NCBI RefSeq assembly: GCF_004010195.1 | Contig: NC_057719.1 | Coordinates: forward strand, 45,147,971 to 45,211,970 | From: Chiloscyllium plagiosum | Taxonomy: Eukaryota | DNA: 64,000 bases | Direction of reading: 5' to 3' | Shown: piece by piece, positions 8,090-64,000 of the stretch | How the letters are laid out: each line of letters begins with the position of its first letter | Numbering within the stretch: position 1 is the stretch's first letter | Translations under genes and position numbers: made by a program | The notes under the pieces: generated by a model | Seen by the model: the letters and a program-made list of their open reading frames with translations, nothing else | What the model was told of the DNA's origin: nothing | Databases searched by the model: none

Positions 8090-8305
8090 ACAAAACTGAA
8101 ACAACTGTGGATACTGTACATCAGAAACAAAAACAGAAATCGCTAGAAAAGCTTAGCAGGTCGAGCAGCAGCTGTGGAGACAAATCAGAGTTGATGTTTT
8201 GGGTTGAGTGACCCTTCCTCAGAGGAACCCAAAACATCAACTGTGACTTCTCTCCACAGATGCTGCCAGACCTGCTGAGCTTTTCCAGTAATTTGTTTTT
8301 GTTGT
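8090..8305. mobile_element. Inverted dimer of short Penelope-derived terminal element
   Basis: ...GAAAAGCTTAGCAGGTC...TGTGGAGA is mirrored by TCTCCACAGATGCTGCCAGACCTGCTGAGCTTTTC; the arms meet near a degenerate hammerhead core at ~8200-8235. Confidence 0.65.
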
Positions 8306-9380
8306 TGATTGTGGGAGATTCAGTGAAGGCTGTGCCACTGAATGCCAACGGACGATGGTCAGATTCTGTCTTGTTGGAGGTGTTTATTGCTGGTAGCTTG
8401 TGTGGCACAACCGCCATTCATCAGCTCCTGTTGGATGTTGCATATTGACACAAGACGCTTCAGTATCTGAGGGATCGCAAATGGTGCTGAACATTGTGCA
8501 ATCATCAGTGAAGATCCCCAGTTTTTTAAAACATTTATTCATAAGGGCGTCACTGGCTAGGCCAGCAGTTATTGTCTGTCTCTAATTGCTCAGAGGGCAG
8601 TTAAGAGTCCAGTGACCCTTCTTCAGAACATTTTGATACGGAGGTCACTGAAACCGAAAGTTTGACTCTGCTTTCTCTCCACAGATGATGCCAGACCTGT
8701 TGAGATTCTCCAGCAATTTTTGTCTGACACACATAAAGACAAAAAAATGGTCCTCTCAGTGGTGGGAAAATAAATTCCTGGGAAACGCTTCAAATGCTCC
8801 AGTCCTCAACATTCAATGGAATGTTTCTTTTGTTTCCCAATTGTTCAGTCCTCTGATCATTTCCATCAGGTTCTTTCACTTCGTCACAGAATAACTGGTT
8901 CATGAATTACAAAAACTGTCTTATTGGGTAAAAGCAGCAGCTTCCATCAACTTGTAGGAGAAAATAAACTGTCTTTCTCCAGGCTTCAGGTATTTTACTG
9001 GAGAGACACGCCATCTGTTTTTTCAATAGTCTGAAGGTTTCTGCCAGTATCATTCACACCCACAAGCTGTTTGGTTACCCAGTAGCCAATGAGAGAGTTG
9101 TTGTCAGGCTGATAGTCTTTGGCATCCACAACTGGTCACAAAGTCACAACCAATCAGCAATCTTTCGCCAGCCAAATCTCACATTGTACACAGACCCCTG
9201 AGCTACACCATCCACAAACATCATCTCATGCTGCTTGAATGAAGCAGCAGTGTAAACACAATGAATTTCAGAAACTCTTTTCAAAACAGAAACAACTTTT
9301 TAAAAAGGTAGAAATTCCTTTTTCAGTCTTTTGTTGCAAAACTGGCCTTATCCCCAATTCAGTTGACAGTCAAAATTACA

Positions 9381-9513
9381 TTCCTGATGAAGGGCTCCTG
9401 CCCGAAACGTTGATTCTCCTGTTCCTCAGAGGCTGCATGACCTGTTGTGCTTTTCCAGCACCACACACTTTCGACTCTGATCTCCAGCATCTGCAGTCCT
9501 CACTTTTTCCTAA
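9381..9513 (+). mobile_element. Short non-autonomous Penelope-derived element with hammerhead core
   Basis: Starts TTCCTGATGAAGGGCTCCTGCCCGAAACGTT; exact 11-bp TSD TCAAAATTACA at 9370-9380 and 9514-9524. Confidence 0.8.
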
Positions 9514-9825
9514 TCAAAATTACAGTAAATTGTAAAGATACAACCTTTACAAGTGTCAGTAACCAGAGTATTGTTAAGCAAACGTTTGTCAACAAGTCCT
9601 TCCATCACATCTCTAATGACTGATAGGATGGTAGTTGAGTGTGCTGGATTTGTCCTGTTTTTTGTGGACTAGTCATACCCAGATAATTTTCCATATTGCC
9701 AAGTAGATGTCAGTGTTGTAGTTGTACTGAAATAGTTTGGCTAGGGGTATAGCTAGTTTACAGTTGTTGTCGCTGGCAATCATTCCCTAACAAGTATAAT
9801 TGTCTGCCTGGGAAATCCCTTGTCA

Positions 9826-14200: not shown

Positions 14201-14671
14201 CTAAGTGCCTCTGCTGCACTGTTTGTAGAGGAGGAGGAGCAGGAATGTAGCCCTCAATCCTTCAATTAACTTGCTTCTTTCCCAACCATCTCCCTTTTAA
14301 TCCACTGTCTCTTCAACATCCTAAATTCACTTCAGTCTCATTATCTCCCCTGGTCAAGCAATCTCTAACTTGCCACCACCCAATCCCCCTCCCATATCTC
14401 CCAACCTCACTGCAATAATTTTTTGGCATACAGGGGGCTTGAAGCCCCCATTGGAGACAGAAGCAGACAGGTGCTAAAAATAGCACTACCAGGCAACATG
14501 CCCATACCCCATCTTCATCCCTTAATCAACCTCCCAAAAACACATATATTATCTGTTATCTGCTCATTATCACATTGCTGTTTCTGTGTTTGTTGTTTTC
14601 AAATTAGCCACTACATTTCACACATTAAACAGTGATTACACATCAGCTGTACTGAATTGCCTGTCAAGTGC

Positions 14672-15520
14672 TTTAAGACAGGCAGGAGGCTGGAAGAATA
14701 CAGCAAGCCTGGCAGCATCAGGAGGTACAGGTGTTTTGGGTGTAACCGTTCTTCAGGACTCAGGGTGGGTGTACGGGAGAGCTGCAGATAATGGGGGTGG
14801 CGGGAGCAGGGTGATGAAGTGGGGATAGGTGAAGTTAGGCAGAGGGTACGACCTAGTTGGTCAACATGAGGAATGAATCTGGCAGGTGGCTGGGAAGGAT
14901 GGAAGGGAGGGGGGAGGGTGCTGGGAAGGGATCGGGAGATGGGAAGGGAGGTTATTTGAAATTGGAGAACTCAGTGTTGAGTCCTCCGGGCTGTAGGCTG
15001 CCCAGGTGGAAGATGATGTGTTGTTCCTCCAATTTGCGGTTGGATTCGTTGTGACAATGGAGGAAGCCAAGGATGGCCATGTTGGAAAGGGAGTGGGAAG
15101 GGGAATTGAAACGGGCAGTTGAAAGCCTGGTTGACTCCTGCGAGCCCAGCCTCTCCCCCTCCCTACTGGATTCATTCCTCCCATTGACCAACCAGGTCGT
15201 ACCCTCTGCCTGTCTTCACCTATCCCCACTTCACCACTCTGCTGCCCAAACCCCTTTATTCGCAGTTCCCCTTACACCCACCCCCAGTCCTGAAGAAGGG
15301 TTACACCTGAAACGTCGACTTCTCCAACTCCTGATGCTGCCTGGCTTGCTGTGTTCTTCCAGCCTTATACCCTGTCTACTGTGGATTCCAGGTAAAAACA
15401 ATGACTGCAGATGCTGGAAACCAGATTCTGGATTAGTGGTGCTGGAAGAGCACAGCAGTTCAGGCAGCATCCGAGGAGTAGCAAAATCGAAGTTTTTGGC
15501 AAAAGCCCTTCATCAGGAAC
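14672..15520. mobile_element. Cluster of Penelope 3' ends in inverted arrangement (minus ~14672-15122 with GIY-YIG end; plus ~15140-15390; minus short element ~15390-15518)
   Basis: Minus ORF RFNSPSHSL...KLEEQHIIFHLGSLQPGGLNTEF; 15140-15362 mirrors 14683-14925; hammerhead core at 15286-15320. Confidence 0.8.
15286..15320 (+). ncRNA. Minimal hammerhead ribozyme motif
   Basis: AGTC-CTGAAGA-A-GGGT-TAC-ACCT-GAAA-CGTC-GACT: stem I AGTC/GACT, palindromic ACGT stem III, GUC cleavage triplet. Confidence 0.7.
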
Positions 15521-16701
15521 CAAACAGAAACCATAACCAAAAAATACACGTGTTATCAGATAATTTGGTTTTGAAGATGAAGAAGGAGTGTTAGAAATGG
15601 TTTATTCAATTTTATTATTCAAATAGTGCCAGGCAATCTTTTACATCCACCTGAACAAGCTGACAAGGCTTTAAACCATCTTCTGAAAAGTAGCACCTCT
15701 GATAATGCAACAATTGAGTAACGGCACTGAAGTGTCAGCCTAGAGTAAATGCTTAAATCCATGCTGGGGATAAACTCAATGTTCGAAGTCAGAGACAACA
15801 GGTACTATTGAAATAAACTGCCGCTGTTCAGAAGTTACTATTTTGACAGCTACATACAAGGATATATACAAGCATTCCCGATGAAGGGCTTATGCCTGAA
15901 ACGTCGATTCTCCTGCTCCTTGGATGCTGCCTCACCTGCTGAGCTTTTCCAGCACCACACTCTCAACTCCGATCTCTGGCATCTGCAGTCTTCACTTTCA
16001 CCTAAGGCTGAAGTGAATGCACCAGCATGCACATGATCACAGCTATATTGGCTGCGATTCTGATTCTGGTTTACATGCATGTACAAATGTAATTGAATGA
16101 ATGAAGACAGTGCTGAGAATACTAAGCAATTGAGACTGCATCAGTGGAAAGAAACATTCATGACCACAGGCCGTCTTAAAGCACTTTGTTAGAGACAAAA
16201 AAAAACTACAGCTGAAATCCACAGTATCTGGATTAGTGGTGCTGGAAGAGCACAGCAGTTCAGGCAGCATCCGAGGAGCAGCAAAATCGACGTTTCGGGC
16301 AAAAGCCCTTCATCAGTGTAGTGCTTTTCCAGCACTACACTCCCTTCTAAAATATCCTTGTATGTTGCTGTCAAAATAGTAACTTCTGAACAGTGGCAGT
16401 TTATTTCAATAGTACCTGTTGTCTCTGACTTCGAACATTGAGTTTATCTCCAGCATGGATTTAAGCATTTACTCTAGGCTGACACTTCAGTGCTGCTATT
16501 CAATTGTTGCATTATCAGAGGTGCTACTTTTCAGAAGATGGTTTAAAGCCTTGTCAGCTTGTTCAGGTGGATGTAAAAGATTGCCTGGCACTATCTGAAT
16601 AATAAAATTGAATAAACCATTTCTAACACTCCTTCTTCACCTCCAAAACCAAATTATTTGATAACATGTGTATTTTTGGTTATGGTTTCTGTTTGGTTCC
16701 T
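15515..16701. repeat. ~350-bp inverted duplication (arms 15515-15865 and 16352-16701)
   Basis: AGGAACCAAACAGAAACCATAACC...TACATACAAGGATAT is reverse-complemented as ATATCCTTGTATG...GGTTATGGTTTCTGTTTGGTTCCT with scattered mismatches. Confidence 0.92.
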
Positions 16702-17949
16702 CTAAGTTAGGTCATGCATTCAGAAATCTGAGCACAGCAGTGACTGGGGAGCGGTTAGGCAAGAATGTGGGGTGATTGGTTTTTTGGGGTGCGGGGATGG
16801 TGGAACTCATTTAGGAAGCAAAGAAGGCAGTTCTATTTATGTTCAAGAGCTTTCAAACTACCCAGTGCAGTTGTATATCTTCTGTTTAGCATGGGTCTGA
16901 CAGAGGTCACAATCTTCTGTCGCACTGGTCTCTCCTGCACAGAAGCACCTGGTAAATATTTCTTTGTGCAAATGTGGCAGGAGATCAAAATGTCAACTCT
17001 CATTTCACAACTATAAGCCAGTGAGCTGCAGAAATCCTTGGACAATAGAAAAACCCTGTGGAACTGCTCTCTGCTTCTTATGCTTTTTTGGATAACTGAT
17101 AAGGACTAATAAACAAATTAACTAAAACTTAAGAGTTATGCCTTAAGGAGCACAGTATCAAAAAAAAATCTTAAAAGAACCATAAGATATGGAAGCAAAA
17201 GTAGGCATACAGTCCATCGAGTCTGCTCTGCCATTCCATGAGTTCATGGCTGATCTGATAGTCCTCAAATCCACTTGCCTGCCTTACTCTTATAACCATT
17301 GATACACACGCACACACACACAGAGGTTCCTATTATTAAAAAGTAATGTACTCAGAAAAGGTAGGTGCAGTAATAAGTAAAGGGGAAAATGAAGTCTGCT
17401 GTGTCTTTTAGCTTTAGCAAGTTTGGGAGTCGCCTGGAGATGTCCAAAAGACAGGACATAGATTCATTATTTTTACAAGTGCAGAAAACTTTATTCATAT
17501 TCCACCACCAGAAAGACCTGAGTGGCCAGTAACAAACGGTGCCCATCTCTTCAAGGGCAATGCCTAAGTGAACAAGAAAGTGAAGGGGAGGGTAGGGATT
17601 AAATCAAAATAGAATTGCAGGGGGAAATAAAACACCCCATTCCCCTCAATGCTCACCTCTCCCTGACAACCTTGAGGTTATTGTGGGACATCGCTTGCTC
17701 TTTCTCCAGGGACACTCAGGCCCAAACATAACTGCAGAAGAAGAGCAAGCAATCAGCCATAATGACCCCCTCCATAGCCTGCTGCCTGGACCTGTTTATT
17801 GCCTGCCTGGCCAGGCCCAGAACCAGACCCATGAGGAGATTCTCTGACCTGCCCTCCCCTCTCCACACCAGGTGAGAACATAGATTTAATGGTACTAATG
17901 AAATCAACTTTAACTGATCAATGTCTAAGGTAAACAAAATGTGCAACAA

Positions 17950-18405
17950 CAACCTCATTTTTCACTTCGGAACTCTACATCCTTTTGGACTCATTATTGA
18001 ATTCACCAATTTTAGAGTTTGAGAAATCTTCTCCCATGTCCTTACCTCAACCACCCACACATCAGATCTTGTTATCACAAGGTCAGCTATTACACATAAC
18101 ACATTATTAGCTACTAATTATCCCTATCGGTAGCTAATCATTCTCCCAGGCTGATCGTTATCCAGTTCTCTGTCTGTCCAACTGTTCTCTCTCTTTGGGT
18201 ACTATCTCCAACTCATGTTTACTCTTTACCTCCTCCACCCTCCCTTACATTTTCCTAGCTTCCATCAGTTCTAAGGAAGGGTCACTGGACCCAAAAGGTT
18301 AATTATGATTTCTCTCCAAAAATGTTGCTAGGTCTGCTGAGCTTTTCCTACAATTTTTGTTTTTGGTTCTTACTTTCAGTGTCCATAGTTCTTATGTTTT
18401 TATTT
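17950..18405 (+). mobile_element. Old Penelope 3' remnant with degenerate hammerhead terminus
   Basis: LIFHFGTLHPFGLIIEFTNF-like peptide near 17950-18020; CTAAGGAAGGGTCACTGGACCCAAAAG at ~18271-18298. Confidence 0.55.
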
Positions 18406-18857
18406 AGAATTTTCATGCTTGTCTTCAAATCCACCCACAGCCAGGCCTCATCTTAACCGTGGAACCTCTTTCAGCCCAAAACTCCCTGATTTTAATTCAC
18501 TCAATGCTTTTAATTTCTAAGTTTCTCACCTATCTTCTCTGCTTCTTTCTTCCTGCTTTATGTCACACTGTAAAATCAACCTCTTTGACCAAGCTTTGGT
18601 CATTTGTCTTAATATACACTTACGTTACTTGTTGTCAAATCTTGTTTGATAATGTCCCTGTGAAATGGCTTGAGGTGTTTAACTACTTTAAAGAAGCTAT
18701 AGAAATGCAGTTGTTTTTCATTGTTTCATTGTAGTAGAAGCAGGAGTAGGCTATTTGGCCCATCGAACCTGCTCTGCCATTCATTAAGATCATGGCTGAT
18801 CTATCCATCATCTCAGCTCCTCCTACCTGCATTATCCCCATAATTCTTAATGCCCTA

Positions 18858-19555: not shown

Positions 19556-19889
19556 CCCTATCATGCAAAAATCCACCCAACTGTGTTTTGAATATATTTA
19601 ATGAAGCTGCCTCCACTATTTCTTTGGGCAAATAATTCCATACATCCATTACCTCTGGGAAAAGCAATTTCTCCTCATCTCTGCCCTAACTCTACTCCCC
19701 CTAATGTTGAGGTCATGTCCCCCAGTCCTAGTCTCATCCACCAGCGGAAACAACTTGGCTGTCTCTATCTTATCTATCCCTTTCATAAATTTATATGTTT
19801 CTATAAATTTTAACACAACTGGAGGAAGCTGATCTTCTCAGATATCATACAGCAGGCCGTGATTTTGTAGCTTGCCTCTTGAATGAAGT

Positions 19890-20112
19890 AGGAGAAAGTG
19901 AGGACAGCAGGTGCTGGAGAGTCAGAGTTGAAAAGCTTGGTGTTGGAAAAAGCACAGCAGGTCAAGCACCACCCAAGAAGCAGAGAAGTCGTCGTTTTGG
20001 GAATTAGCCCTTCATCAGGAATCGTTTCTGATGAAGGACTAATGCCCGAAACATCAATTCTCTTGCTCCTCAGATGCTGCCTGAACTGCTGTGCTTTTTC
20101 CAGTACCATGTT
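19890..20112. mobile_element. Head-to-head dimer of short hammerhead-bearing Penelope-derived elements
   Basis: ...GCCCTTCATCAGGAAT-CG-TTTCTGATGAAGGACTAATGCCCGAAAC...; the flanks are mutually reverse-complementary. Confidence 0.8.
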
Positions 20113-20599
20113 TTATGACTCATGGATGAAGTGACCAGCCTCTGGTTTGTCTGATGACCTTTCCTTCTAAACTCCATAAATGAGGAAAGAAATCCCCAGT
20201 GGAATTTGATCTATTTTAACTGCTGCAACAAAGGTTCAAAAAGTCAGAAATAAAACTTATTGATAACAAATAAGATACTCAATATGCAATACTAAATATG
20301 CAAATATTGAGGTAAATGTAGGAAAATTATTCCCAAAATCAGAATTCCCAAAATCCCTAAACCTCAAAAGTAAATGCCATCCTTGGGAGTACACACTCTT
20401 AGAATTGCAAAATTTAAGCAGCTTAGAGATTCAGTTTTTGGATTGATTTCCCTTAGGTGTTGCCTGAAAGCAGAGCATAGCATGACTGAAATGCATTTGT
20501 GGTTTAGCTCAGTTCATTTAGTCCAACGCTCTCACAAAGTTACAATAATAACCATATTGAAATGAACTATAGTCATAAGATTTTAAATGTATAATTGTA

Positions 20600-23835: not shown

Positions 23836-23886
23836 TAGTTTATCCACCTGCTCTCTTTGTTGGCTTTTGTGTTCGTGTGACATCTG

Positions 23887-23995
23887 GATTAGAGTGGTGC
23901 TGGAAAAGCATGGATGCTGCCTGAACTGCTGTGCTTTTCCAGCACCACTCTAATCCAGAATCTGGTTTCCAGCATCTGCAGTCATTTTTACCTTG
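23887..23995. mobile_element. Palindromic short Penelope-derived element
   Basis: GATTAGAGTGGTGCTGGAAAAGCA...TGCTTTTCCAGCACCACTCTAATC; 12-bp TSD GTGTGACATCTG at 23875-23886 and 23996-24007. Confidence 0.8.
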
Positions 23996-24233
23996 GTGTG
24001 ACATCTGTCTCTAAAACTTCACTGCTTTATTTCAGTGTATCTGATTCTTACTTCAGTGTATTTGATTTCATCATTGTTCCATTACTCCTCTGTTACATGT
24101 TTATGTCGTGTACGTTGTATGAGTAGAAAATGTCTTTGTTTGCAACACAGGGAAGCTCTGAAGATTGACGGATTCCAAAGTGTCTTTTTCTCTGCATCTA
24201 TTTGCAGTTCATCTGTCAGTTGCTTCAAATAAC

Positions 24234-32680: not shown

Positions 32681-32789
32681 TATATAATTCATCCATTTAT
32701 TTGATGGAGTTCCTTCAGGCATTTAACAACTGTAAAGGTGTTGATGAAATGAAATTTGTTATAGAAATGCCTCAGTGAATTTATGGACT

Positions 32790-38776: not shown

Positions 38777-38782
38777 ACCAGA

Positions 38783-47314: not shown

Positions 47315-47395
47315 TGGATAAATATAAGAATTGTACAGCAGAAAGTGTAAGAAATGATGCTACAAAAGGCACAGATCCACTTATTAATCTTGATG
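47315..47395 (+). CDS. RTRAF: RTRAF exon 4: VDKYKNCTAESVRNDATKGTDPLINLD
   Basis: Polypyrimidine-CAG/GTAAG; 81 nt; phases fit neighbours; PLINLD conserved. Confidence 0.93.
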
Positions 47396-47588
47396 GTAAG
47401 TAATAGCCATGCTCAACTATAGTTTACTCTTAAGAGGAGGAAACCTGATCTAAGAAATTGTATGGGTTATCCATATTGACCAAAAAGTTGCAAGAAAGTT
47501 GAGTGGTACTGTTGATGGGCAGTCTGCAAATACTGCAGAAGCTGTCAATGTCTGGAGGCTTTCATCATTATTGGATTCATTTTACCTC

Positions 47589-47705
47589 TGGTGGCACGGT
47601 GGCTCAGCGGTTAGCACTGCTGCCTCACAGCACCAGGGTCCCAGGTTCGATTTCAGCATTGGTCTGTGTGGAGTTTGCATATTCTCCCCATGTCTGTGTG
47701 CTCTG
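47589..47705 (+). mobile_element. HE1-type SINE 5' fragment
   Basis: GGTGGCACGGTGGCTCAGCGGTTAGCACTGCTGCCTCACAGC...TGTGTGGAGTTTGC. Confidence 0.8.
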
Positions 47706-49154
47706 CTACAGAAGATTGGAGAATAGGCACTGCTCCTACAACCTCACTCATGCTAAATGAAGATGTAGTATTGAGTTAATTCTCCTTTCTACCTTCTATT
47801 TGCTTCACTCTGTTGTCGGGACAGGTCTTTTTCTGTTTGTTTGTATGATCTCTTGTGTTTCCCAGAAAGTGTCTTCCTACACTTAGGCCAATCAACTTTG
47901 GCTTGTTACGAGGTTAAAAGCATATCTTAAGTTTGTTATACGGCCATGTTTTCATTGATGCAAAATAGTGTTTGGGTGCTCAATAATATAAGTGGTGGCA
48001 GAAATTAAAAATTAAAAGTAATACAGGAATTAGGGTCAGGAATACTCTTAGGCTTATTTAAGCTAACAATGACTTCTGTCACTGCATGGAACTGAGATTA
48101 CATCAGCTGCCTGGTGATAAGCTATAATGTGAAAGTGTATAAGCTGTCAGTGGTTTTTTTGTGAAACATCTTCAATCTTTGTTTGAAATCTTCATAACAC
48201 TGAACAGACCTTTTCTGCTTACTGCTATTGAAAATTAGCTGTGTGCGCACTACCTTGCAGGTATCCCAACACATCAAGAACAAAGTTTGCTGGTATCATT
48301 GGTAAGGGCACTACCCTGATAAATCAGCCAACTTACCTGGTTTAAAGTCTAAATAAAGCCTGGCAATTATCTGTAAATTCCCATTTTCTGTTATATTCTC
48401 TGTGGCAGCACCTTGACCACCAAGTCCACTTGCTGACCAATCAGCAGTCTCCTATTATACAGTATTAAATATTGGCTTTTCCCCCTTTCTGGTGATATTG
48501 CAAATTGTCCTAATGAATGTAAGATCCAAAGTTTCAACAAAATGTCTGTCTTCATGGTACTTGAATTCTATGCTACCAAATAACTATTAATAAGAAGTGT
48601 TGACAGATTGACAAGCACTGATTTTTGACGCGCTCTGCTACTGTCAATAGTATACAAATGCTCAATAAATATTTGACACTTGCTATTTCAGTGGAAATTC
48701 ATAAGTCACTTTAAACTCAAACTTGACATTATCTCTACATGTTGCAACCCGTCCTACTTCAATAGTTCTGAATCACTGCTCCTAAATCTGTCCCTATTGA
48801 ATAACCTGTTCCGTTTGACATAGAACTTTCTACATCAGATGTAGCACAATATTCTATATTGAAAAAGGTTATACTTTTTTCATACTTGTATAATTGTCAC
48901 TGGAGGATTGGGCGCATACAGTAATTTCCTCACCACTATGTTTCTGGTTTCTCAGAGAAACATATACCCTGCAGAGGGTGCTATTACAGCTACTGGTGCT
49001 GCAATGTTTTACAGCTGCAAATTCTTTACAGCATTGAGTCAAAGTAAATTAGCTCTTTTGGTGACTTTGAATTTTTGAAATTGGATTAGCCCAAATTTAC
49101 ATTTTTAAAAACTTTTGAACAGTTTCAGTTCCATAACATTGTTTTCTATTATAG

Positions 49155-49243
49155 TTAACAACCCTGACTTTAAGGCTGGTGTGATGGCATTAGCTAATCT
49201 TTTACAAATCCAGCGCCATGATGACTACCTCGTAATGTTGAAG
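49155..49243 (+). CDS. RTRAF: RTRAF exon 5: VNNPDFKAGVMALANLLQIQRHDDYLVMLK
   Basis: TAG/GTAAG; 89 nt; near-identical to vertebrate RTRAF. Confidence 0.96.
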
Positions 49244-52200
49244 GTAAGCATACTGGGCTTCATTAGTGTCCTTTAAGGTGTTCCTTAGTGACTTGCATAA
49301 AGTAAATTTTTGCCCTAGTAAAGCAAACATTTAATGACTACTGTATTGATTTCCCTGCTTTGTAAATACATCTCATTATATAAATTGCGAAAAATTGCAA
49401 GTAATAGAATTGAAATCAGCAGAGAATGCTGGAAGTATGTAACAAGTCAATAAAGATCTGTGAAGAAAATACTGTAATTTTTAGGTTTTAGAAATTTTAT
49501 CAGCATCTTATGAAATATGAGTTAGCGAAGAAACAATTTATTTTCTTGTTACTTTAATTGACTCAGTGATCAGCAAACTGCTGCATGGAAAACTTAGCGA
49601 ATGTCATGTTAGACATTAGAAATACAGTAAAACTAAAAATGTGTAAGCAGTTGGCAAGTATAAAAGAAACTAGAATGTATAAAATATACTGGAAAGCTTC
49701 ACTTAAAAATTGGAGAATGAAGGTAATGTGCATGCAGGAGTTCTGAATTAATAGTGGAAAAGGCTAAAACATAGTTGGCCTGCTAGTCCCAAAAAAAAGC
49801 CGAATAGATCACCATTTCTCAGGCAAGAGGCAAGGTTGCAAAGGTGGAACCTTCAAGATAACCTTGGCCGATATGGGAATTGATCCCGCGCTGATGCCGT
49901 TACTCTGTGTTGCAAATCTGCCCTTCCAGCCAACTGAGTTAACTCTCCCCTCAGTAACAGATGATTGGAACAGCAGTCCAATAACTTAGAAACAACGGAG
50001 AGTTTTGAAGGAGGTGTTGATGCTGAGGTAAAGATGTAGGTGGTTAGCAAACAATCTAAAGCTGATGCAACATTTTCAGGTTTTACTGCTAAGGGACAAC
50101 ATGTACAAGAGAAATAGGGAGTGATGGTTGGATCTTTGGGTGACACAGGAGATAATAGCATGGAAGTAGGAAGAAAACTATTGCAGGTCATTTTTTGACT
50201 TCAGCTTTATAGAAAAGAATGGAACTAGGCGAATGCAAACCAATCCAGCTGCAAGATGGAAAAGCATCGGGGAGGTTGGTGTGACCAACGATATGAAAGG
50301 TTGCTGACAGGTGGAGAAGGCATATTTTACCTGATTTACACTGAGAGGATGTCATTTGTGAGTTTGAGCCATTTCAGTGCTGTGAAATGTATGCAAACAT
50401 AATGAAATTTATTCACATATAGAGGTGTTATAAGATTCTTGTGACACTGGTAGTGCCCCTTCATGAGTCAGGAGGCCTAGATTCAAGTTCCACTTGCTTC
50501 ATGTCCCATCCCCTCTGAGCAAGTTGATTAGACAGTATTCAAATATTGGGTTGTGTGAGAGATGGACACAGGTGTGGAAGACACTACTATGTTCATGGAC
50601 TTAGGAAAGGTAAGGGAAGTTGGGGATAGGGGATTAGTTATCCATGGAGAAGGTTTTGTACGTTGAGGACTGCTTTGATGATGGCAGAAAGGAAGCTGGA
50701 AGGCACTCTCTGAGAAAGAATGGTAAACTTTATCTCTTGACATAAGAACCAGGAATAGAAGCTTTGTGGGCAACAGTTTAATAGTAAGTGGGTCAAGGGT
50801 GTAGCAAGTGTGGCTTCATGAATAAGATATGCTGGGAAAGAGCACAAAGTAGAATGAACTAAGAGAAATAAGTTCAGCGAAGGCAGTGGCAATCATTGAG
50901 GGAAACTTGGCTCAGTGAGCTAGGGCAACGAAAGAATTAGCAGCTGATAGGTTGGTCTCAAATTGGTAACAACAGAGTCCACAACCACCTTCACATTGGT
51001 GATGTTGGAGGAAGGAAGTGGGCTTTAAGAAATAGAGGAAAAAAAAAGGATACTTATTTTAGGTTTTAGGTTGACTTGTATACTGTGCAATGTTGGCAGC
51101 TGAGAAAGGGATCTGGTGATGCTTTGTATGGTCTAGCCAGATTCGATGGCTAAACTAGTTGTGTTGAAATGAATTGGAAGGGTGTTTATTGAGATGGACA
51201 TTGGAAGTAGAGAGGATGAAGGGGATTGTGGATGGAGAACAACACAAAGTGTGATCAGCAATGGCTGGACCCATGATTAAAACTGAGGTAAGCAAGGCCA
51301 GGGTCAGGAATGTGGCTATGAATAATAAGGAAGCTTGAATGGAGGGAGAAAGGAGGGTAACAACTTGAGAGAGAACTTGGTGAATTGAAATAGAAGTTGA
51401 AACCACTGAGGATAAGAAGTAACTTGGTGCTGAGGCTGTGGGAAGAAAACAGTGCGCATTTCTGATGAGAAAATATTTATGGTGCTTGATATATTCATTG
51501 TGTTCTGTAATGTGTTACTGATGCAGATCTTCTGGGTGAACCTCAAGAGTTAAGTGTTGGCGGCAATACAAATTACTTGGTTAGAGCCAGTGCATAAGAT
51601 GGCTGTTTCGATTCTATTTCTCATTCATTCTTGCTGTTCTGCCTTGTGTTGCAGCTGGTACTACTATCATTCAACTTTGAAGGCCTTGGGTTAATGTTCA
51701 TTCCTCACATTTGCTGCTGCAGCTATCCTATTTGTGAACAAAAAGAACAATGAAAAATGGCAGTGCTGAATATGCGTATAAAATAATTTAGTAACTAGTA
51801 TTCCAAGGGCCACTCCTGGGATAGCAAATGCAAATAATTGTGCACTTTTCAAAGTACCAGTTGAAATAGCACTTTTTCAAATGTACTTGTGCCCATATTT
51901 TGAAGCAAGTGTATTAGGAGAAATTTTCTTGTAGAAAGAAAAATATTTTGTTTAGCACCTGTAAGGTGTACGCTTTTACTGAGATTTAATCTTGGTTAGA
52001 ACATCATTTGATTTTAGCTGACTATTGTATCTATACTTTTACTATGGTCAATTAAAAATGCCTCAAGACATTGGATATTATTTAAAAAAACCAGATGTAA
52101 GCACTGAAATGCACAACTAATTTCTCAAACTGTAAACAATGGGGCTAATGTCTTCCCTGTGGAGTTATAAATGAAGCCAGTTTGTGAAATTGATTCCATA

Positions 52201-52358
52201 TGTTAAGCAATGAAATCTGTAGGTCTTATTGAACAGTATGATTTGCCTTGCAATGCAGATAAAATTATCTATAAGGAAATGCTTCTCAGTTGGATAAGAA
52301 ATTGTGTAATTCCTACAGTTGAACTTGGGATCAAAGGTGTTTTAAATTTTGATTTTAG

Positions 52359-52427
52359 GCCATTCGCATTTTGGTACAAGAACGATTAAGCCCAGAGGCC
52401 ATTGCAAAAGCAAACCGATCAAAGGAG
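52359..52427 (+). CDS. RTRAF: RTRAF exon 6: AIRILVQERLSPEAIAKANRSKE
   Basis: TTTTAG/GTAAA; 69 nt. Confidence 0.95.
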
Positions 52428-53113
52428 GTAAACAATGTTTTCTAAAACAGTTTGAGATTTAAATTATCAGTACATTGTTCTCTTTCAGACTTCAATTAGT
52501 ATTGTTGTTACAATTGAATAAAATATGGAATTCTGTGAATGTTTTATTACTCCAGTCTGGCTTGACATTTAAGGAGAAGGATTGATGGTTTAAAATAGAC
52601 TGAAAGGAAAGGATGTAACTCAGTACAAAGATCAAGCCAGAAAAGCAATGTTTGAGCTGGCCAACCGGTTTTCTTGTGAATACGTTTGTTAATAGATATA
52701 TATGCATTATACCACATGCTAGCAAGTTGTAGCAGGTCAAAGCCAGATCTAATATGTTAGAAGCATGGTTAGCCTTCGATGATGGAGGAACATGATAGGT
52801 TTTATAGCTTTCAAGAAGCTTGTGCTGCCCTGTAAAGAAAGCATATTATACGTATTTGCCTGGAATACCCAACATATGAAGAAAATAAATTAATTGATAT
52901 GCAATAAAATTTCCACAAAGTTTGTCCGCCTTTGAAATATGTTGTAATAATAAAATGAATGAAATGACAAGGTTCACTAGAGACCATCTCATTAAAATAA
53001 AAAAGTCAACCTGCTAAATGAAAAGAGCAGGAAAACTGCAGAAAAGGCTGTATATGGGGGTCTTTAAACTTGGATACACCTCATTGCTAAATTTGCCTAG
53101 CAGAAAGTTACTC

Positions 53114-53200
53114 CTGAAGAAGGGCTTATGCCCAAAACGTCGATTCTCCTGTTCCTTGGATGCTGCCTGACCTGCTGCACTTTTCCAGCAACACATTTTC
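53114..53200 (+). mobile_element. Short Penelope-derived element with degenerate hammerhead core
   Basis: CTGAAGAAGGGCTTATGCCCAAAACGTC; TSD AGCAGAAA(G/T)TTACTC at 53099-53113 and 53201-53215. Confidence 0.78.
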
Positions 53201-55349
53201 AGCAGAAATTTACTCTGGTCAAGTTACTATGAATGACTCATCCATGTAGTTTATCTTGTTACAATTGCCAGAGAACAACCTCTCAAAGTTCTTCGGTCAG
53301 AGTGATGGAAGAACAGCAATAATGGACCTATGCTTTTCTGATTAGAGGAAATTTCTTTCTATGTTTTCTTCGCACTTTACCCAATTTTTGCAGATTAGTC
53401 TACTTTGTCCCATATGACGTCAGCTCATTCAACTTTTATTCATATCTATCAAACAAAGCAGACAAATCTGTGGGGTGGCTCAGTGGGTTAGCATTGCTGC
53501 CTCTCAGCACAAGGGATCTTGGTTCGATTCCACCTATTTTCAATCAGCCTTTTCAGAAATAATATTGCATACCTCCAGAGCAGGTGGGACTTGAACCTGA
53601 GCTTCGTGGTTCAGGGGTAAAGACACTCTTACTGGAGCAAGTGTGTTAACAGATGATGAACAGCGGTGGGCAGATGGTGCTAGAATACAGATCAGCAATG
53701 ATGTAATGCAGTGGCAAAACAGGCTCAGGGCTGAGTGACAGCCATGTTTGTAAATCAACAATACCATCATAAATCTATTACATCCATTTCATTGACCCAG
53801 TGCTAAAGATACTCTAGACCTTTTTTTGAAATATGTGCAACTTTCAACTCCCCCTCAACTTTCTCAAGAGACATTTGTGTCCATGCTGTACGTAGTAACA
53901 TTTTTAAGATTTTTTTTATCAGCCGGTTGTGATCTGTTATTGACACACCTCTGAAGCAAGTGGGTCTAAAATCCTTCTAGCTCAGAGGTAGGGACACTGC
54001 CATTCTGCCATAAGAGACCTCCGTTTGCAGAGGATACTCTTGCTAGGAACCCCTTATTCTGTTGTTAAATGGCATTTTTTGGGTGTTTTGTATATTGCAA
54101 TTTATTAATCAATAATAATTGATAAAGTCTGGTCTCTGATTACCACTGATTTGCTTCTAATTAGTGTTTGATTTAAAACATTGATATTTGTGCCAAGGGG
54201 AGAAAATGCATGGAACTAGGATTGAGCAGAGAGCCCACCTGCTGGTAATAGAATGATTTCAGTCCTATTAAACTGACTGCCTCTACATACGTACTTTAGG
54301 ATTCTCATGGGTAACAGCAGCATATTCATAGTAATGTATTTAAACTCCTCCGGACTGATACCGTATCCTGAACCGCCAGTAAAAACATTTTCTGTCCAAA
54401 GATGCCAAGGATGCATCCTGGTCAATGTTAGACAATAGTGTTCTCAAACCCTCTCAGTTGATAACTATTCTCCTTCTAGCCCAATTAAGATCGTGCTACC
54501 TTCCTGTCCCCTAATTCGTGTAATATTATTCCTCTTTAGTACCACCCCAAAAAACATTTCCACCTTTTTCTATCTTTTCTCCCAAACCAACACTTCAGGT
54601 TACTTTTTCCCTTTCCCTCTCATCAAATCAACTACTTTTATCTAACCCTTTTATGATTATCAGTGTCCTGTTTGGGATCTTAATTTCTTTGATCCGATCT
54701 GAATCTAATGGCTAATGTAGTGGAACAGTTTCCCATCTGCTTTCGTTGCTATATCTATTGTTCTTGAGTTCCTGCCTATGCTGTAGAAAGCCACATCCTA
54801 GACATTAGCACTGGAAACTATATAGTGAACAGGCAGAAACCTGTCCTTATGCAATAACTACTTGATGAGAGGAACTGGTGAAGAACAGTGTGGTCCTAGC
54901 TGTGCAGACTTTTGTCAGCAAATGCATTCCAGATTCCCAAACATCCATTGTCAGCATGAAGCACTGCCAGCTGGCATGTTGCCAACTATTTTTCTGCCCT
55001 GCCCTGTGCTCTCAGATTAATTATCCTCAAATGTTAACTTTTATGTTTAAGAATCAACTCCGCTCTGAACATTAAGTTTAAAATGACTCTATCATACCAA
55101 TAGTTTTAAATTTTTTTTTACTGTTTATAGTTAATTAATGCTGTGTAGAATATTTATTTCTAATGAAGGATTGTGAAAATGCTGATCCATTGCTCTGCCC
55201 AGCCAACCATAAGTGAAGCAAGGAATCGATTCAGTTCTACCGGATGGCTGTGGTTCAGTCATACAATTTTTGCTAATACAATACAGCACAGGAACACTTC
55301 CTTTGGCTCACTAAGCCTGTGCTGATAAACAATTCTATTTATTTTTCAG

Positions 55350-55398
55350 GGCTTAACTGTATCTCTAGAAAAACATCTACTTGGTTTTGATACTGGAG
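55350..55398 (+). CDS. RTRAF: RTRAF exon 7: GLTVSLEKHLLGFDTG
   Basis: TTTTTCAG/GTAAG; 49 nt; LGFDTG conserved. Confidence 0.95.
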
Positions 55399-56739
55399 GT
55401 AAGTAGAATGACATTGAAATGCAAAATTTATAACCTCTGGTTTAACTGCATGCTGTAATTCCCATATGTAAATACCATTAACGCAGAGGAAGGCTATGTA
55501 GCTCATCACAGTGTTAGCTTGCTAATCCCATTCCCCAATTCTATCCCTGTAGCCCTACAAATATTTTTTTTAATTTTGCATGCCCACCATGCTTTTAAAT
55601 TAATTCTTTCCTTCCACACTCTTAAATCCCTCTTAACCAGGTATATGTACTTTGAATAAAAACTTTGTTTTTAAGTCCTTTGCAAATGTGTTTATGTTTT
55701 ACATACTGATATAGGTTTCAGCATGGCAATACATACTGCTTAGTGGCTGAGAATTCATTGAAACCTCTCTGTTCCCCATAGAACCCCTCATTACCTCTCG
55801 TAATCAATATAATAATTTTACCTTCCCTTGTACATATGGGCCCACTCACCCTGCGCATACACTTACACTTAGTCACTCAGCAGCTGAGCCTTAGGATACA
55901 CTATTTCTTGCACCCCTCAACTGAGACTTGAACCTTTGTGTATTTTGAATCCTTCTGGCTTGCATGACCATTTCACTTCTAATTGAAAAAAATTATTTAA
56001 GTTTTCTACTCTAGTTTAGTTCTATAAAATAATGGATTATTAAGAGACATTGATTTCGTTGCTTTTTAAAGGTGGCATAGGACTTGGTTTTTGAAAATGT
56101 ATAATGGGAACTTTTAAAAACCAAATGTATATATGGAAACCAAATTACTAGCATTGTACAGTCTTTCTGCAACACAATTCATGCCATGTCCCATTGCTTG
56201 AATTTAAAAATCCAAAATGCATTATAACGTTGCCTGAAAAGTGAATAATCACAATTTCAATGTTTCCATCCTTCGTGATTTTAAAATTTGTGTGTGTGTG
56301 TATAAATTTCAAAATTCTAAATAAATGCTTGTCTATTTTGCCGAATCTTGTTACTAGGTTATTACAGAATTTATTCCGTCTCGTTATTTTAATTTCTGGT
56401 TTCTACATTGACCAATGCTTTAAAAGATCAGGAATTATTTGACGTTAAATCTCTCCAACCTTTTCAATCAACACTGATGTTTAATGTTTCTGTGAGCAGT
56501 AATCGAAATGCCACATGTCTATCCTTTTTCCTTATTTTTCCCACTCATTCAACCACCAATTTAACATATTAAAATTTAGTGTGGTCTCAAGTTATGTAAA
56601 TACACTAGTTTGTTCAAAGGCTTACTAGCTGTACTTTTTTTTTAAAAAAAGTCTCCTCTACTGTAAGTATTTTTAACATTCAATCTTCTGTCCTAGCGAG
56701 AACCTACATTTTTTTTTAAGGAAACCTAAAAACTACAGG

Positions 56740-57380
56740 CTAGGAGTAGAAATAGGCCATGTGGCCCTCCAAGCTTGCTACATCATTTAGTAAGGTTCAT
56801 CGCTGATGTGTCTGAAGTGCATGTTCACATCTACCCCACTGCCTTTAATTTTTGTCAAACAAGACTATGTCTACCTCTGCCTTAGAAATATTTGATGACT
56901 TTCTTTGGCAGTGGGGTCTGAGGCAGTGTGTTCTAAGATCTCTTCACCCTTGAAAATTTATCCTCCCCTCTATACTGAAAACTGTCCCCAGAAGAGGAAA
57001 TATCCTTTCCACATTGCTGCCAGACCACTCAGGATCTCAGTCTTCAATCAAGTGACTTCTAACCTTTCTAAACTATAATGCAAGCAAGTCCAGCCTGTGC
57101 AGTCTTCTCTAATAAGACTATCCAATTATTCCAGGTATCCATCTAGTAAACCTCAGAATTGTTTCAAATTATTGGCAACCTCCTTCAAACAAGGGGACCA
57201 AAGCCAAACGCGGTATTCAAGATGTAGTCTCGCCCTATATAAATGAAGGATAGCATTCTTACTTTTCAGAAGGATTGCATTCCATTCTGCAGTAGTTCTC
57301 CATTTAAATAATACTGTTTTTATATTCTTCCTGCCAAAGTGTATAACTTCAGAATTTCCCACATTTTACTTCATCTGTCA
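56740..57380 (-). mobile_element. Old CR1 3' fragment
   Basis: EVIHFGRKN...LHLEYRVWLWSP. Confidence 0.7.
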
Positions 57381-58184
57381 GATTTATTGTCAGGTCAATC
57401 TTATGTTGGTCTGATTTTGCTTCCCATGTAATGTAAAGGGTTTGATTTATATATTTGAACATTTGAGTTTAGATTTTTAAATTTAAACGAGTGACATGGG
57501 TTTTCTGTGTTGAGTGAGTTTAATATTGATTAACCTCTGTAGCCATGGTGATTTATTTTTTAAATGTTGAGAGAAAGACTTTCTGAATATAACTGGTCTG
57601 GTTTACTATGTTCATTTGTAAATCTTTTCCCAATGTAAACAGTTGTGCATTAGGCTTAGTTTGAGAGGTCAGGAAATTTTTGTTTCCTTTTGATTAGGGA
57701 TGCGTTAATAGCTTGGGGAAATTCTTTTATTGTTTCAATTTAGGCAGTCATGGCTTAAGGTGGATGTGGAAAGCAATTGTTCCTGAGAAAGGGAGAAGAT
57801 AGTTAGAACTGTTAAAAAATAGATTGTAATGAGTTAGCAACAATACAGACCAGTTTGGTTAAAATCCTGAAGGTATTATTTGAAGATGAGATGGTTAAAC
57901 TCAGCTGTATGAAGGTTCTAGGAAGAGGCTATCAGATTTCTAAGACTAGGAATTGAAGCCATAGATAAGTTAAACCATATGTGGGACAGAGAAGGGAATT
58001 CTGAGTTCTAAAAGCATCAATGGGATTGTATTTTTACTGTTTTGAAATCTTTAAATATGTTTTATGTGAATTGTTTGGTTTATTCTAATTTAGCTTCATT
58101 TCTTTTGCGTAATAAATTGTTTTTTATTGTTAAAACCAAATCTGTGATATTGTGTGCTTCTGTTTCAGTGTAAGCACATGTTAA

Positions 58185-58735
58185 AGACCATAAGACATAG
58201 GAGTGGAAGTAAGGCCATTCGGCCCATCGAGTCCACTCCACCATTCAATCATGGCTGATGGGCATTTCAACTCCACTTACCCGCATTCTCCCCGTAGCCC
58301 TTAATTCCTTGTGACATCAAGAATTTATCAATTTCTGCCTTGAAGACATTTAGCGTCCCAGCCTCCACTGCACTCTGTGGCAATGAATTCCACAGGTCCA
58401 CCACTCTCTGGTCCGTGTGAATCTCCGCTGGACACGCTCCAGCGCCAGAATGTCCTTCCTGAGGTGTGGGGACCAAAACTGGACACAGTACTCCAAATGG
58501 GGCCTAACCAGAGCTTTATAAAGTCTCAGTAGCACACCAGTGCTTTTATATTCCAACCCTCTTGAGATAATTGACAACATTGCATTCGCTTTCTTAATCA
58601 CGGACTCAACCTGCATGTTTAACTTTAGAGAATCCTCAACGAGCACTCCCAGATCCCTCTGTACTTTGGCTTTACGAATTTTCTCACCGTTTAGAAAGTA
58701 GTCCATTCTTGTATTCTTTTTTCCAAAGTGCAAGA
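58185..58735 (-). mobile_element. CR1 3' fragment with internal deletion
   Basis: ILHFGKKN...LLRLYKALVRPHLEYCVQFWSPHLRKDILALERVQRRFTR; RVVDLWNSLPQ. Confidence 0.9.
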
Positions 58736-59151
58736 TTTCAATCTGGGATCTGTCTTTGTGTACATGGAAGAATGCAGCAAGGGCTCCCATACCTTTATGT
58801 AATAGTCATATCAGTTTTTCAACATTATTTAATTCTCGTGCCTTCAGGTAGCTACAAGGTCATAAACGTATAATTTAATTCAGTGTAAAATGTACTGACT
58901 TTTACATTATCCATCTGCATTTATCCTTTAAAGAAACTGATTCTAATTGGTCAGGTCCACATACTCTGAGGAATTTAAACCCTGGGATTAATTGGTCGAA
59001 CTTGCTATGTTAGTAACTTGATCCCATTCTGTAACAGTTACATCTGTTCCAGTTGTTTAACTTGACTTTTAAATTGCTTAATTCTGTTGCTGGTGAATTT
59101 GCCAGATTTTCATGATATTAGAAATAACTGTAATTGAATTGGTTTGAACAG

Positions 59152-59306
59152 ATGCCACCTTGAATGAGGCTGCAAGAGTCCTCCGGTTGCTGCATATAGA
59201 GGAACTACGAGATCTTCAGACCAAGATTAATGAAGCTATTGTAGCCGTTCAGTCAATAATAGCTGATCCCAAAACTGATCACAGGCTGGGAAAGGTTGGA
59301 AGATGA
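59152..59306 (+). CDS. RTRAF: RTRAF exon 8: DATLNEAARVLRLLHIEELRDLQTKINEAIVAVQSIIADPKTDHRLGKVGR*
   Basis: CAG acceptor; C-terminal DPKTDHRLGKVGR is diagnostic. Spliced CDS totals 729 nt = 242 aa + stop. Confidence 0.97.
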
Positions 59307-62400: not shown

Positions 62401-62639
62401 GTATTCATACCAGTCACTGAGTCCACTAAAAACAAAAAGGCAGCACAGTAGTGTGTTCTTGAAAATCATGAGGTATGGAAGCTCTCTCAAAAAAAAATAT
62501 AGTTACCATGTAACATTTTCAGTTCCCTACTAACAATGGGAGGAAAAGTACAGACCAATCCATGCAGCATTGTGCTCCAATAGAGCTCTTCCTCCAGATG
62601 TAGTATGCTGAAATACAGTTGTCATTACCAGCACAATCA

Positions 62640-62650
62640 TTATTTGCTTC
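62640..62650 (-). CDS. NID2: Probable last coding exon of nidogen-2 ((G)-S-K-stop); 3'UTR extends leftwards
   Basis: Minus strand CTACCTTTTTTCCTCTCCTGGCAG|GA AGC AAA TAA, a strong acceptor. From recall, human NID2 ends ...CPTGRK and lies convergent to RTRAF. Only 11 nt, so the call rests on synteny. Confidence 0.45.
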
Positions 62651-64000
62651 CTGCCAGGAGAGGAAAAAAGGTAGATTAAATGATACTGTGCAAGTATTCC
62701 TCATGGCGATATTAAAACAAAAAGCTGACTTGTTGAATTTAATTTGTAGCTGTTGATGCTAGTTTAGTTTTTATTAACTAGCAAAGTACTATTCTTAGTT
62801 ATCAAATTTATCCTGGTAAATAAAAATTGAAAGAATCGCAGATGCTATCATTTCTGAGGAAGGGTCATGGGACCCGAAATATTAACTGATTTCTTTTCAC
62901 TGATGCTAGCTTTTCTGGCAGCTTCTGTTTTTATTCATCCTGCTAAAGAAGGGCAAGAATTTAGTTATTCCACATTTCTTTTACTTAAGAATTCTACAAA
63001 TGAGAATAGAGAAATCCATTGTGAAGTCATTGAAAAGTGACCACAGCTTGAACATAGATGCGAAATGAAATGAAATTAGATGGGTATAAGTTCAGGATAC
63101 AAAGGGAATTGAATGATTATTTAAAAAGGATATTGCGCAAGGGAATGAGTAAATGGCAGGGCAATAGCACAATGTCCTGAATGGCCTCTTACTATGCTGT
63201 AACACTTGTGTGCTTCAGAACATTAAGGACTGACTCAACAAAGTATTTTTGTCTTATAGGAATGTACTTTTTCCTTTGAAAAGCAAACACTATTTCTTGA
63301 AGTACTGGTCTTGCACATGTATTTTTCACTTTCCACTGTAACAAATTCCCCATCACACATTTTATAATTAACCTTAAAATACATCTTTTTCAAACTTAAT
63401 GGAACATTCTATCATGCTAACAATCACTATTTCCTAAAGATTCTTTTACACACTTATTAATTAGTCCTCTCATTGCAATTGCATTAATGTTTACATAAAA
63501 ATAGATCTAAAACAGCCAGCGCTCTAGTTGATTTCTTAACATATTGTCCCAGAAAACAGTCTCCTACGTTCAAAGAATTTTTCCTCCATATCATTGACAC
63601 TCTGTACTTTTACCCAATCTAGAAGTAGTTAAGTGTCTCATTATTATTGCATTCCCCTTACTTATATGCATGTCTAATTCTCTGAGTTAGATCATGCTCT
63701 ACATTACCACATTGGTTAGTGTACCACTGCCATTAATGGTTAGTGGGCTATAAACCACTCAATGTTTGCTGCTAAAAGGTACGTTCCAAAAATGAAAAAC
63801 ATTTCAGCTTCCATTTGTGCAGTTGGTTGAAGTATAATGGTTGGGACACAAGAACTCCCTCCCTGCTCCTTTAATTCCATGAAATATTTTAGATCTCTGA
63901 GCACAGAAGCTTGTGTTCAATCCTCATTCTGCAATAAGTATTCCTTCTGTACTGCTTATGTGTGTCAAGCCAATATTGTGTCGTCTTAGAACCCTGTGGT

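Follow-up and report, generated by a model that had tools for sequence, protein, structure and literature searches.

We analyzed a 64,000-nucleotide stretch of the genome of the shark Chiloscyllium plagiosum (contig NC_057719.1, positions 45,147,971 to 45,211,970, forward strand; hereafter the window), in which short, dispersed repeats begin at or next to the core of a hammerhead ribozyme motif. As judged from sequence, these stubs are terminal pieces (the hammerhead and 75–130 nt) of several Neptune-type families of Penelope-like elements (PLEs). We put a probability of roughly 0.6 on the stubs being run-off cDNA by-products of these families that end at the 5' start of the RNA, on stem I of the hammerhead. 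They probably arise as by-products when the parent is copied and do not form a mobile RNA family of their own. Long, endonuclease-bearing copies of hammerhead types A2, B, C and D share their ends and their layout. An initial annotation of the window had proposed independently mobilised Penelope termini that resemble short interspersed elements (SINEs). Retrotransposed termini with their own target-site duplications (TSDs) were confirmed, but independent SINE-like mobilisation was not, given the long copies, the lack of RNA polymerase III (Pol III) signs and the lack of discrete RNA ends.

Positions within arms are given relative to C3 of the hammerhead core (C3 = 0). The search combined a scan for the core pattern, a self-comparison of the window and a profile built from 12 window copies. 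The profile returned 20 arms at E ≤ 1e-7, and in the reversed window it gave no match below E = 1.2. With weak or distant arms added by hand reading, the total was 26 arms in 16 insertion events, or ~1 event per 4 kb (Table 1); a weak match at 12378-12424 (E = 0.05) was excluded from this count. All 11 positions named in the initial annotation carry a hammerhead core or its decayed remnant by pattern scan, profile and hand parse. Two of these 11 do not fit its description of the elements as short (~90–140 bp): core 15290 is at the end of a 224-bp arm of pseudo-long terminal repeat (pLTR), and core 18271 at that of a ~470-bp arm that retains a remnant of the endonuclease. The type with GGAGC/GCUCC and AGCU stems, both of which it had listed, is present (cores 3701 and 6717) only at the ends of a 3.2-kb reverse transcriptase (RT)-endonuclease unit, which lies outside the 8090..62940 range that it covered. 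Most of its "elements" are in fact arms of inverted head-to-head pairs with one common TSD (10 of the 16 events).

The 5' ends of the arms were not evenly distributed. Twelve of the 26 arms start at -7 to +2, eight start downstream (+9 to +105, one of them uncertain), six start far upstream (-122 to -2650), and none starts between -8 and -121. Relative to a constant rate, the pile-up at -7 to +2 is 29-fold (p ~1e-11, or 3e-10 allowing for ~25 windows). The view that 5' ends are not random along the Penelope 3' region is therefore upheld by 12 of 26 arms within a 10-bp window. Upstream of the clustered arms, the flanking DNA agrees with the long copy of the respective type at only 3–13 of 30 bases (17 with gaps for arm L7a), where true continuation into the long copy would match at 26–30 of 30.

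Contigs and reads were mapped to the stretch 14600-16800 at an 85% cut-off and against a diverged reference. Among the sites listed, one loose-end site at 15288 (-2; run X17) falls inside the long type B copy and has unrelated flanks. In contigs from other parts of the genome, starts at -3 and at -5/-4 are joined head to head. The RNA sample was one poly(A) single-cell run, ~2% of it read (3,337 reads), in which short non-poly(A) RNAs would be missed. For type B, RNA read depth, from copies elsewhere in the genome, was 65 at +37, 10 at -82 and 9–11 in the endonuclease region. Contig depth in run X1 was 216,925 at +37, 39,790 at -82 and 35,000–81,000 in the endonuclease region, so that type B depth drops 5–6 fold from +37 to -82 and is then level into the endonuclease region.

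Self-cleavage by the hammerhead does not define the 5' ends of the stubs. This is because the stubs begin on the 5' edge of stem I, and the cleavage site is ~30 nt further downstream. A start at the cleavage site itself (+28/+29) was observed in one of the 26 arms, the minus-strand arm of L12.

We propose that the PLE transcript would begin at the first base of stem I, at an initiator-like motif with A at -4, and would carry the hammerhead region twice, near the 5' end and at the 3' end. Reverse transcription in the parent would start at internal sites 75–130 nt downstream of the hammerhead. Starts on the downstream pLTR copy would produce long, randomly truncated arms (-122 to -2650), and starts on the upstream copy would produce a short, "strong-stop-like" cDNA that runs off the 5' end of the RNA. 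By extension from a Poseidon element of Anolis studied in vitro, the PLE protein may nick and extend both target strands and use two internal RT sites. The two cDNAs would then be joined head to head, or to host DNA via 1–5 nt of microhomology, and the ribozyme would not set the stub boundary. In that Anolis element (PAc), two internal RT start sites define the tail, and both target strands are cut and extended (PMC11167929), which fits the two 3'-end classes and two arms observed here. The PAc start sites, however, lie 111–118 nt into the open reading frame (ORF), compared with +75 to +89 and +124 to +129 from C3 in the shark; PAc also belongs to another clade, and no 5' stop was reported for it.

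Three other signatures of the boundary were considered and rejected. Types B and C have a CAG before stem I, as at a 3' splice site, but types A2 and D lack it, and the flanks are unrelated. An extra G derived from a cap is present at the 5' junction of only 2 of the 12 clustered arms. The stem III sequence ACGT resembles the motif of a downstream promoter element (DPE), but its spacing differs between types A, B and C. The stubs have no common upstream exon, with loose-end agreement of 0.31–0.40 in the contig runs. The initiator consensus is YYANWYY. An initiator-like match to it with A at -4 was found in L1 (type A2), L7b (type B) and L10 (type C); it is missing in L7a (core 14756) and in both type D copies, and type D has no stub in the window.

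Several points weigh against run-off at an RNA start on stem I. The RNA reads, which are poorly suited to this question, revealed no RNA 5' end, in that no site with many molecule starts was listed. In Drosophila virilis the Penelope start site is reported 46 bp upstream of a 75-bp intron (PMC2377424), and the end of that intron maps to helix I (PMC4209133), so the RNA there does not begin at the hammerhead. The element studied in vitro is a Poseidon, whereas the shark elements are Neptune-type, and no full-length copy (a pLTR-ORF-pLTR partial tandem) was found in the 64-kb window. Assignment of the 5' ends was manual, the two arms of a pair are not independent observations, and the A2 pLTR served as reference for the A1 stubs. 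The depth steps are crude, with the 85% cut-off, the diverged reference, cross-mapping and short arms that inflate the tail. The initiator-like motif is common in these pLTRs (1 per 20–60 bp), and its bases are also constrained by stem I, with which it overlaps.

Parent families and their hammerheads

For each of types A2, B, C and D, the window holds a long copy with endonuclease sequence (L1, L7a, L10 and the long arm of L2, the last with RT), so the different stems of the motif mark different parent families. Next to the A2 stub at 16316, loose ends of RNA reads extend into the pLTR end of 1-875. No long copy of type A1 was found in the window, but loose ends at 15873 carry a pLTR-like upstream consensus.

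The fragment at 1-875 encodes a CX4CX2C linker finger and a GIY-YIG domain, followed by the pLTR. The Pfam match to GIY-YIG on 237-662 has E = 0.002, below the curated cut-off, and the motif is visible, with two cysteines between GIY and YIG. The translation of 237-662 has 79% identity with a protein of Chiloscyllium punctatum in which an RT is also present, and its next-closest relatives are from whale shark and zebra shark. In L2, a tblastn search with PLE proteins placed the RT at 4046-5322, upstream of the endonuclease and broken by frameshifts. A CX2-5CxxC finger in the RT-endonuclease linker is present in both L1 and L2, and is described as absent in Penelope/Poseidon (Craig et al. 2021, 10.1101/2021.04.23.441226). 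The parent clade thus appears to be Neptune-like and not Poseidon, a name that rests on finger motif, domain order and host; the finger also occurs in Nematis and Naiad.

The initial annotation had a Penelope fragment (1-876) ending exactly where the stubs start. The fragment does stop in the first six core bases, but it is the only one of six long arms to do so, and the remaining five continue past the hammerhead into the tail. In a zebra shark protein (P0005), the C-terminal residues appear to read through the pLTR into a hammerhead-like stretch, which suggests that a related shark has the same pLTR organisation and that this gene model is probably misannotated. At 5969-6354, inside the 3' region of the type D element and adjoining an assembly gap, is a degenerate (CA)n/(TG)n tract.

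Sixteen arms could be parsed by hand. They have CUGANGA, one extra A, a stem II of 4–5 bp, GAAA and a stem I of 3–4 bp, and a four-base palindrome stands where stem III would be. By this organisation we classify the motif as the minimal type I hammerhead (min-HHR) of PLE pLTRs. It resembles published pLTR min-HHRs in having no real helix III, palindromic positions 15.2–16.2, an extra base before stem II, the pair G10.1-C11.1, family-wise compensatory changes, and opposite-strand pairs 100–700 bp apart (PMC4209133). That survey reports min-HHRs in metazoan pLTRs as thousands of single dispersed motifs per genome, "probably related to truncated PLEs"; in the sections consulted, sharks are not mentioned and no 5'-end mapping is given. 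The density in our window appears far above its 4,000–9,000 motifs in coelacanth and Xenopus.

The initial annotation had described differing stems around a conserved core, and the stems do covary between families. In the hand parse, 100 of 120 cells were paired, compared with 83.5 ± 2.8 in shuffles, and two-sided changes between types A, B, C and D were found at six positions (I.1, I.2, I.3, II.3, II.4 and III). A tool count on a MAFFT alignment gave 10 two-sided cells (0 of 500 shuffles) and a covariation score at 20 of 500, a weaker result than the hand parse, with type D misaligned by one column. With only four related families, this covariation is not a formal test. The core persists between families but not within copies: 7 of the 16 parsed arms have an intact core, and the number falls to 5 when an intact stem I and palindrome are demanded as well. 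In type A, cores deviate from the majority at 5 of 77 sites and tails at 22 of 203 (p = 0.37, low power). An Rfam search of the window gave no hammerhead match at E ≤ 10, and predicted folds of the arms do not form the active fold alone, with stem II the only stem in most of them. The ribozyme is predicted to be maintained in the parent families, where it would act as a dimer, with copies decaying after insertion.

Insertion layout and possible separate priming of arms

An extra ~40-bp tail is present on one arm only in 9 of the 10 head-to-head pairs. Measured to the TSD (n = 13, the remaining ends being read from profile positions), 3' ends lie at +75 to +89 (7) or +124 to +144 (6), two classes ~40 nt apart. 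The tail (9426-9497, and the same stretch in 15392-15519) has a predicted long-range helix that encloses two hairpins, with weak z-scores (-1.4 and -0.5). This helix may be an RT loading structure, as modelled, with untailed arms ending inside it and tailed arms just past it.

Candidate TSDs of 11–17 bp were found at 11 of the 16 events. Four of these exceed all 150 random boundary pairs, two lie at 1–3%, four were identified by eye (two of them inverted) and one is weak. The TSDs that the initial annotation had assigned at 9370/9514 (11 bp, exact) and 53099/53201 (15 bp, 1 mismatch) both exceed all 150 pairs. Microhomology of 1–5 nt occurs at several junctions, and the 3.2-kb L2 unit and the 130-bp units have an identical inverted-plus-tail layout.

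This layout is known from Neptune-clade PLE insertion units (10.1101/2021.04.23.441226; PMC3846280). Points of likeness to the units described in those sources are the RT, the CX2-5CxxC finger, the GIY-YIG domain, 5' truncation, an adjacent inverted truncated copy, a TSD and a 30–40 bp tail at one end. The shark units differ in that both arms are often cut to 25–135 bp, and in the 5'-end pile-up at the edge of stem I, which the descriptions of units given there do not include.

One insertion, at 14667-16701, has its arms apart. In it, an A2 insertion sits in the tail of the B unit L7, and its tailed arm (L8a) and untailed arm (L9) each keep their own 15-bp TSD copy, the two being inverted to each other. 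The 14-bp TSD of the older B unit is also inverted, and host DNA at 16345-16701 is duplicated in inverse (356 bp) at 15521-15872. Divergence is about equal between the A2 arms (4.5%) and the duplicated host DNA (3.3%). The junction 15521-15903 was recovered on one contig of a related organism's DNA run and the junction 16290-16800 on one low-depth contig; no contig spans the whole stretch. From the sequence arrangement, we interpret the event as a ~0.8-kb inversion (15521-16316) with one breakpoint between the arms. The arrangement fits separately primed arms that were then connected to a second break, but an ordinary pair that broke at its tip at a later time would look the same. As the arms of L8a and L9 are unjoined and each has a TSD copy, we counted them in favor of separate cDNAs. 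The event suggests that PLE insertions may come with small inversions and duplications of host DNA.

Alternative origins of the stubs

An alternative that we consider unlikely is a true non-autonomous family. Its unit would run from -4, be re-transcribed from an internal RNA polymerase II (Pol II) core promoter, bind PLE protein via its tail and be copied in trans. The sharp 5' boundary and the very high copy number speak for this, as do reports of an internal TATA-less promoter with initiator and DPE in D. virilis Penelope (PMC2377424), of RNA needed for copying within the first 172 nt of the Anolis ORF region (PMC11167929), and of pLTR sequences that alone drive insertion in trans in Adineta (PMC3846280). 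As internal RT initiation hides any read-through 3' flank, its products would look like by-products of parent copying. Against it are the long endonuclease-bearing copies, the DPE-like ACGT at differing distances, and type A cores that decay like tails (at the low power given above). A Pol III B box was absent from all 16 arms examined (an A-box-like sequence with 1 mismatch was present in three), and no tRNA was found nor any Rfam match to a tRNA, 5S or 7SL head. In the RNA run, neither start nor end clusters were found over the stubs, + and - oriented stubs had the same slight strand tilt with no sense excess, and unique flanks were almost without depth. For the stretch 9000-16800, a separate look-up listed no RNA run that contains it, which counts neither for nor against transcription.

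We regard as speculative, and as slightly more doubtful, an extended form of this proposal in which a unit of ~130 nt, beginning with the first stem I base and closing with the tail, would combine initiator, ribozyme and RT-loading structure and act as a self-sufficient Pol II mini-retroposon, re-transcribed from its own copies. Neptune PLE proteins that insert two RNAs together, one per target strand, and are able to invert host DNA would have raised its copy number to hundreds of thousands.

Less probable again is that the stubs are by-products with a structural stop, in which the cDNA end folds back or is released after copying of the 5' strand of stem I. L12, a snap-back hairpin joined at four stem I bases, has this form. 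Self-priming has been inferred from palindromes at inverted junctions (PMC3846280), and the microhomology at several junctions would agree with it. A 4-bp stem is weak, however, stem II predominates in the predicted folds, and a block would be expected on the 3' side of a fold. In addition, the arms of L8a and L9 are joined to host DNA and not to each other, and the TSD-flanked singles L5 and L16 have no fold-back.

It is very improbable that hammerhead self-cleavage or circular RNA, as in retrozymes, defines the units. The motifs are covarying min-HHRs, non-LTR retrozymes derive from pLTRs, and the minus arm of L12 starts at the cleavage site. Only one of 26 arms starts at +25 to +33, though, which fold-back explains equally well, and cutting would strip the core from the copied 3' product. 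Self-cleavage was not needed for insertion in vitro, and no Anolis RNA sequencing reads ended at the site in the experiments described (PMC11167929). Non-LTR retrozymes, as described in PMC7229834 and 10.64898/2026.07.22.740005, resemble the shark units in being non-coding and pLTR-related with a type I hammerhead, in being present in a chondrichthyan and in being depleted in introns. They differ in forming head-to-tail tandems that are cut from cleavage site to cleavage site into circles, whereas the shark units are dispersed, single or head to head, with TSDs and starts upstream of the core; self-comparison of the window revealed no head-to-tail tandem hammerhead arrays.

Ordinary random 5' truncation, with the clustering an artefact of the search, is the least probable origin: PLE insertions are usually 5'-truncated (10.1101/2021.04.23.441226; PMC8969392), the profile was built from hammerhead-plus-tail copies, and 14 arms do start downstream (8) or far upstream (6), but the mismatched flanks, the empty interval from -8 to -121 and loose ends at -2 inside a long reference copy contradict it.

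Overall, the stubs belong to PLE insertion units with min-HHRs, and they fail the SINE and retrozyme tests that we ran. Earlier publications describe the element class, the ribozyme motif and the inverted-plus-tail layout, and the value of the stubs is as a mechanistic handle and not as a new system. In the literature that we searched, which lay outside Repbase, Dfam and subscription journals, we found no published 5'-end peak at stem I, shark PLE stubs or PLE-derived SINE. The stubs are a very large natural set of products for direct tests of how PLE inverted ends and tails form and of what the hammerhead does. Two fixed classes of RT start and one fixed stop bear on transcription start, on the role of the ribozyme and on separate priming of arms.

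Loci, copy number and other features of the window

Table 1. Hammerhead-related insertion events and associated features of the window; arm starts are relative to C3.
Feature	Position	Strand	Description
L1	1..875	+	3' part of Neptune-type PLE, pLTR type A2; stops after first six core bases; no tail
L2, type D	3606..6859	.	16-bp TSD 3606-3621 / 6844-6859; assembly gap 5323-5968 inside
L2, inverted 5'-truncated arm	3622-~4050	-	core 3701; no tail
L2, long RT-linker-endonuclease-pLTR arm	~4046-6843	+	core 6717; with tail
L3, type C pair	8066..8315	.	12-bp TSD 8066-8077 / 8304-8315
L3, long arm	8223-8078	-	start -1
L3, short arm	8227-8303	+	start ~+15
L4, decayed type C pair	8590..8725	.	(-) arm start -3, core 8626; (+) arm start ~+9; no secure TSD
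L5, single type A1 stub	9370..9524	+	-4/-3 to +129, with tail; core 9384 intact; exact 11-bp TSD 9370-9380 / 9514-9524
L7, type B pair	14667..15391	.	exact 14-bp TSD, left 14667-14680, right inverted at 16173-16186
L7a, arm	15111-14681	-	endonuclease C-terminus, core 14756; no tail
L7b, arm	15168-15391	+	pLTR from -122, core 15290 intact
L8a, tailed long arm of A2 insertion into L7 tail	15392..15519	-	start -3, core 15516; 5-nt microhomology with host DNA at junction; TSD copy 15377-15391
X'	15521..15872	-	inverted duplicate of host 16345-16701, 3.3% divergent; left part of inverted segment 15521-16316
L8b, single type A1 stub	15874..16005	+	with tail; start -4 (-13 allowing a 3-nt deletion); core 15878, U4 changed
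Composite	16187..16344	-	inverted L7 tail end 16187-16211; inverted A2 TSD copy 16212-16226
L9, short A2 arm	16316-16227	-	starts at C3; then 28-bp tail remnant 16317-16344 (+)
L10, type C long arm	17945..18412	+	endonuclease C-terminal remnant, pLTR, decayed core 18271, tail; no TSD found
L11, type A pair	19873..20132	.	17-bp TSD, 3 mismatches
L11, long arm	20022-19890	-	start -4
L11, short arm	20025-20115	+	start -3
L12	20711..20915	.	hairpin, one decayed core (20824) as loop; arms have four stem I bases in common; (+) arm start -4, (-) arm at cleavage site; 14-bp TSD, 3 mismatches, not above null
L13, young A2 pair without any hammerhead	23872..24007	.	arms start ~+46 and ~+63; 15-bp TSD, 1 mismatch; hairpin z -8.4
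L14, decayed type C-like single arm	26513..26618	-	5' end uncertain (~0 to +15)
L15, type C pair	26843..27053	.	exact 11-bp TSD; 330 bp upstream of RTRAF start codon
L15, long arm	26916-27042	+	start ~+2
L15, short arm	26913-26854	-	start ~+36
RTRAF, host gene	27386..59306	+	coding exons located: 27386, 49155-49243, 59152-59306
L16, single type A1 stub	53099..53215	+	without tail, -2..0 to +86; core 53114, G12 changed; 15-bp TSD, 1 mismatch; sense strand in RTRAF intron
L17, type C pair	62806..62947	.	15-bp TSD, 2 mismatches
L17, tail-only arm	~62846-62821	-	
L17, short arm	62847-62932	+	start -7 or -2, core 62854

The very high genome-wide copy number that the initial annotation had expected fits the numbers of contigs on one 2.2-kb stretch, which were 108,259 and 118,159 in two DNA runs. 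Summed contig depth was ~3.5 million over the A1 stub, compared with ~8 on single-copy DNA, although with the mapping used this sum is no copy number. Depth and the window density of one event per 4 kb together point to 10^5 or more copies in the genome. In other collections, the tail motif had 0 matches in viral contigs and metagenomes, five matches in bacterial genome contigs were taken as chance from their records, and endonuclease-based locus searches of the sequence collections found no shark loci.

Some copies had been placed inside host introns. The copy at 53114 does lie between RTRAF exons, but such cases are rare here: one event was observed in the 32 kb of RTRAF, compared with 14 in the 27 kb upstream (p = 2e-4). 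This scarcity is in line with the depletion of Xenopus retrozymes in introns, as reported in 10.64898/2026.07.22.740005. The exon search scanned sets of 41, 150 and 144 open frames; from a list of 469 candidate frames outside repeats it covered the more GC-rich part, and further genes may have escaped it. The L15 pair is at the edge of the RTRAF CpG island (27001-28000).

The best Rfam match in the window, to mir-29 at 23878-23964 (39.6 bits, below gathering), is the fold-back of L13. Pairs that lack a hammerhead, like L13, could be misannotated as microRNA hairpins or could feed small-RNA pathways. Thirteen bases over the abrupt 3' end of the 1-875 fragment (870-882, +) recur at ~14633-14645 (-), in the flank of the B unit, which was noted by eye and is probably chance. 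A second abundant repeat family, with remnants of RT and AP endonuclease, occupies 15 intervals within 7406-53535, and a GDSL esterase-like frame at 41266-41811 (-) is probably ORF1 of a long interspersed element (LINE).

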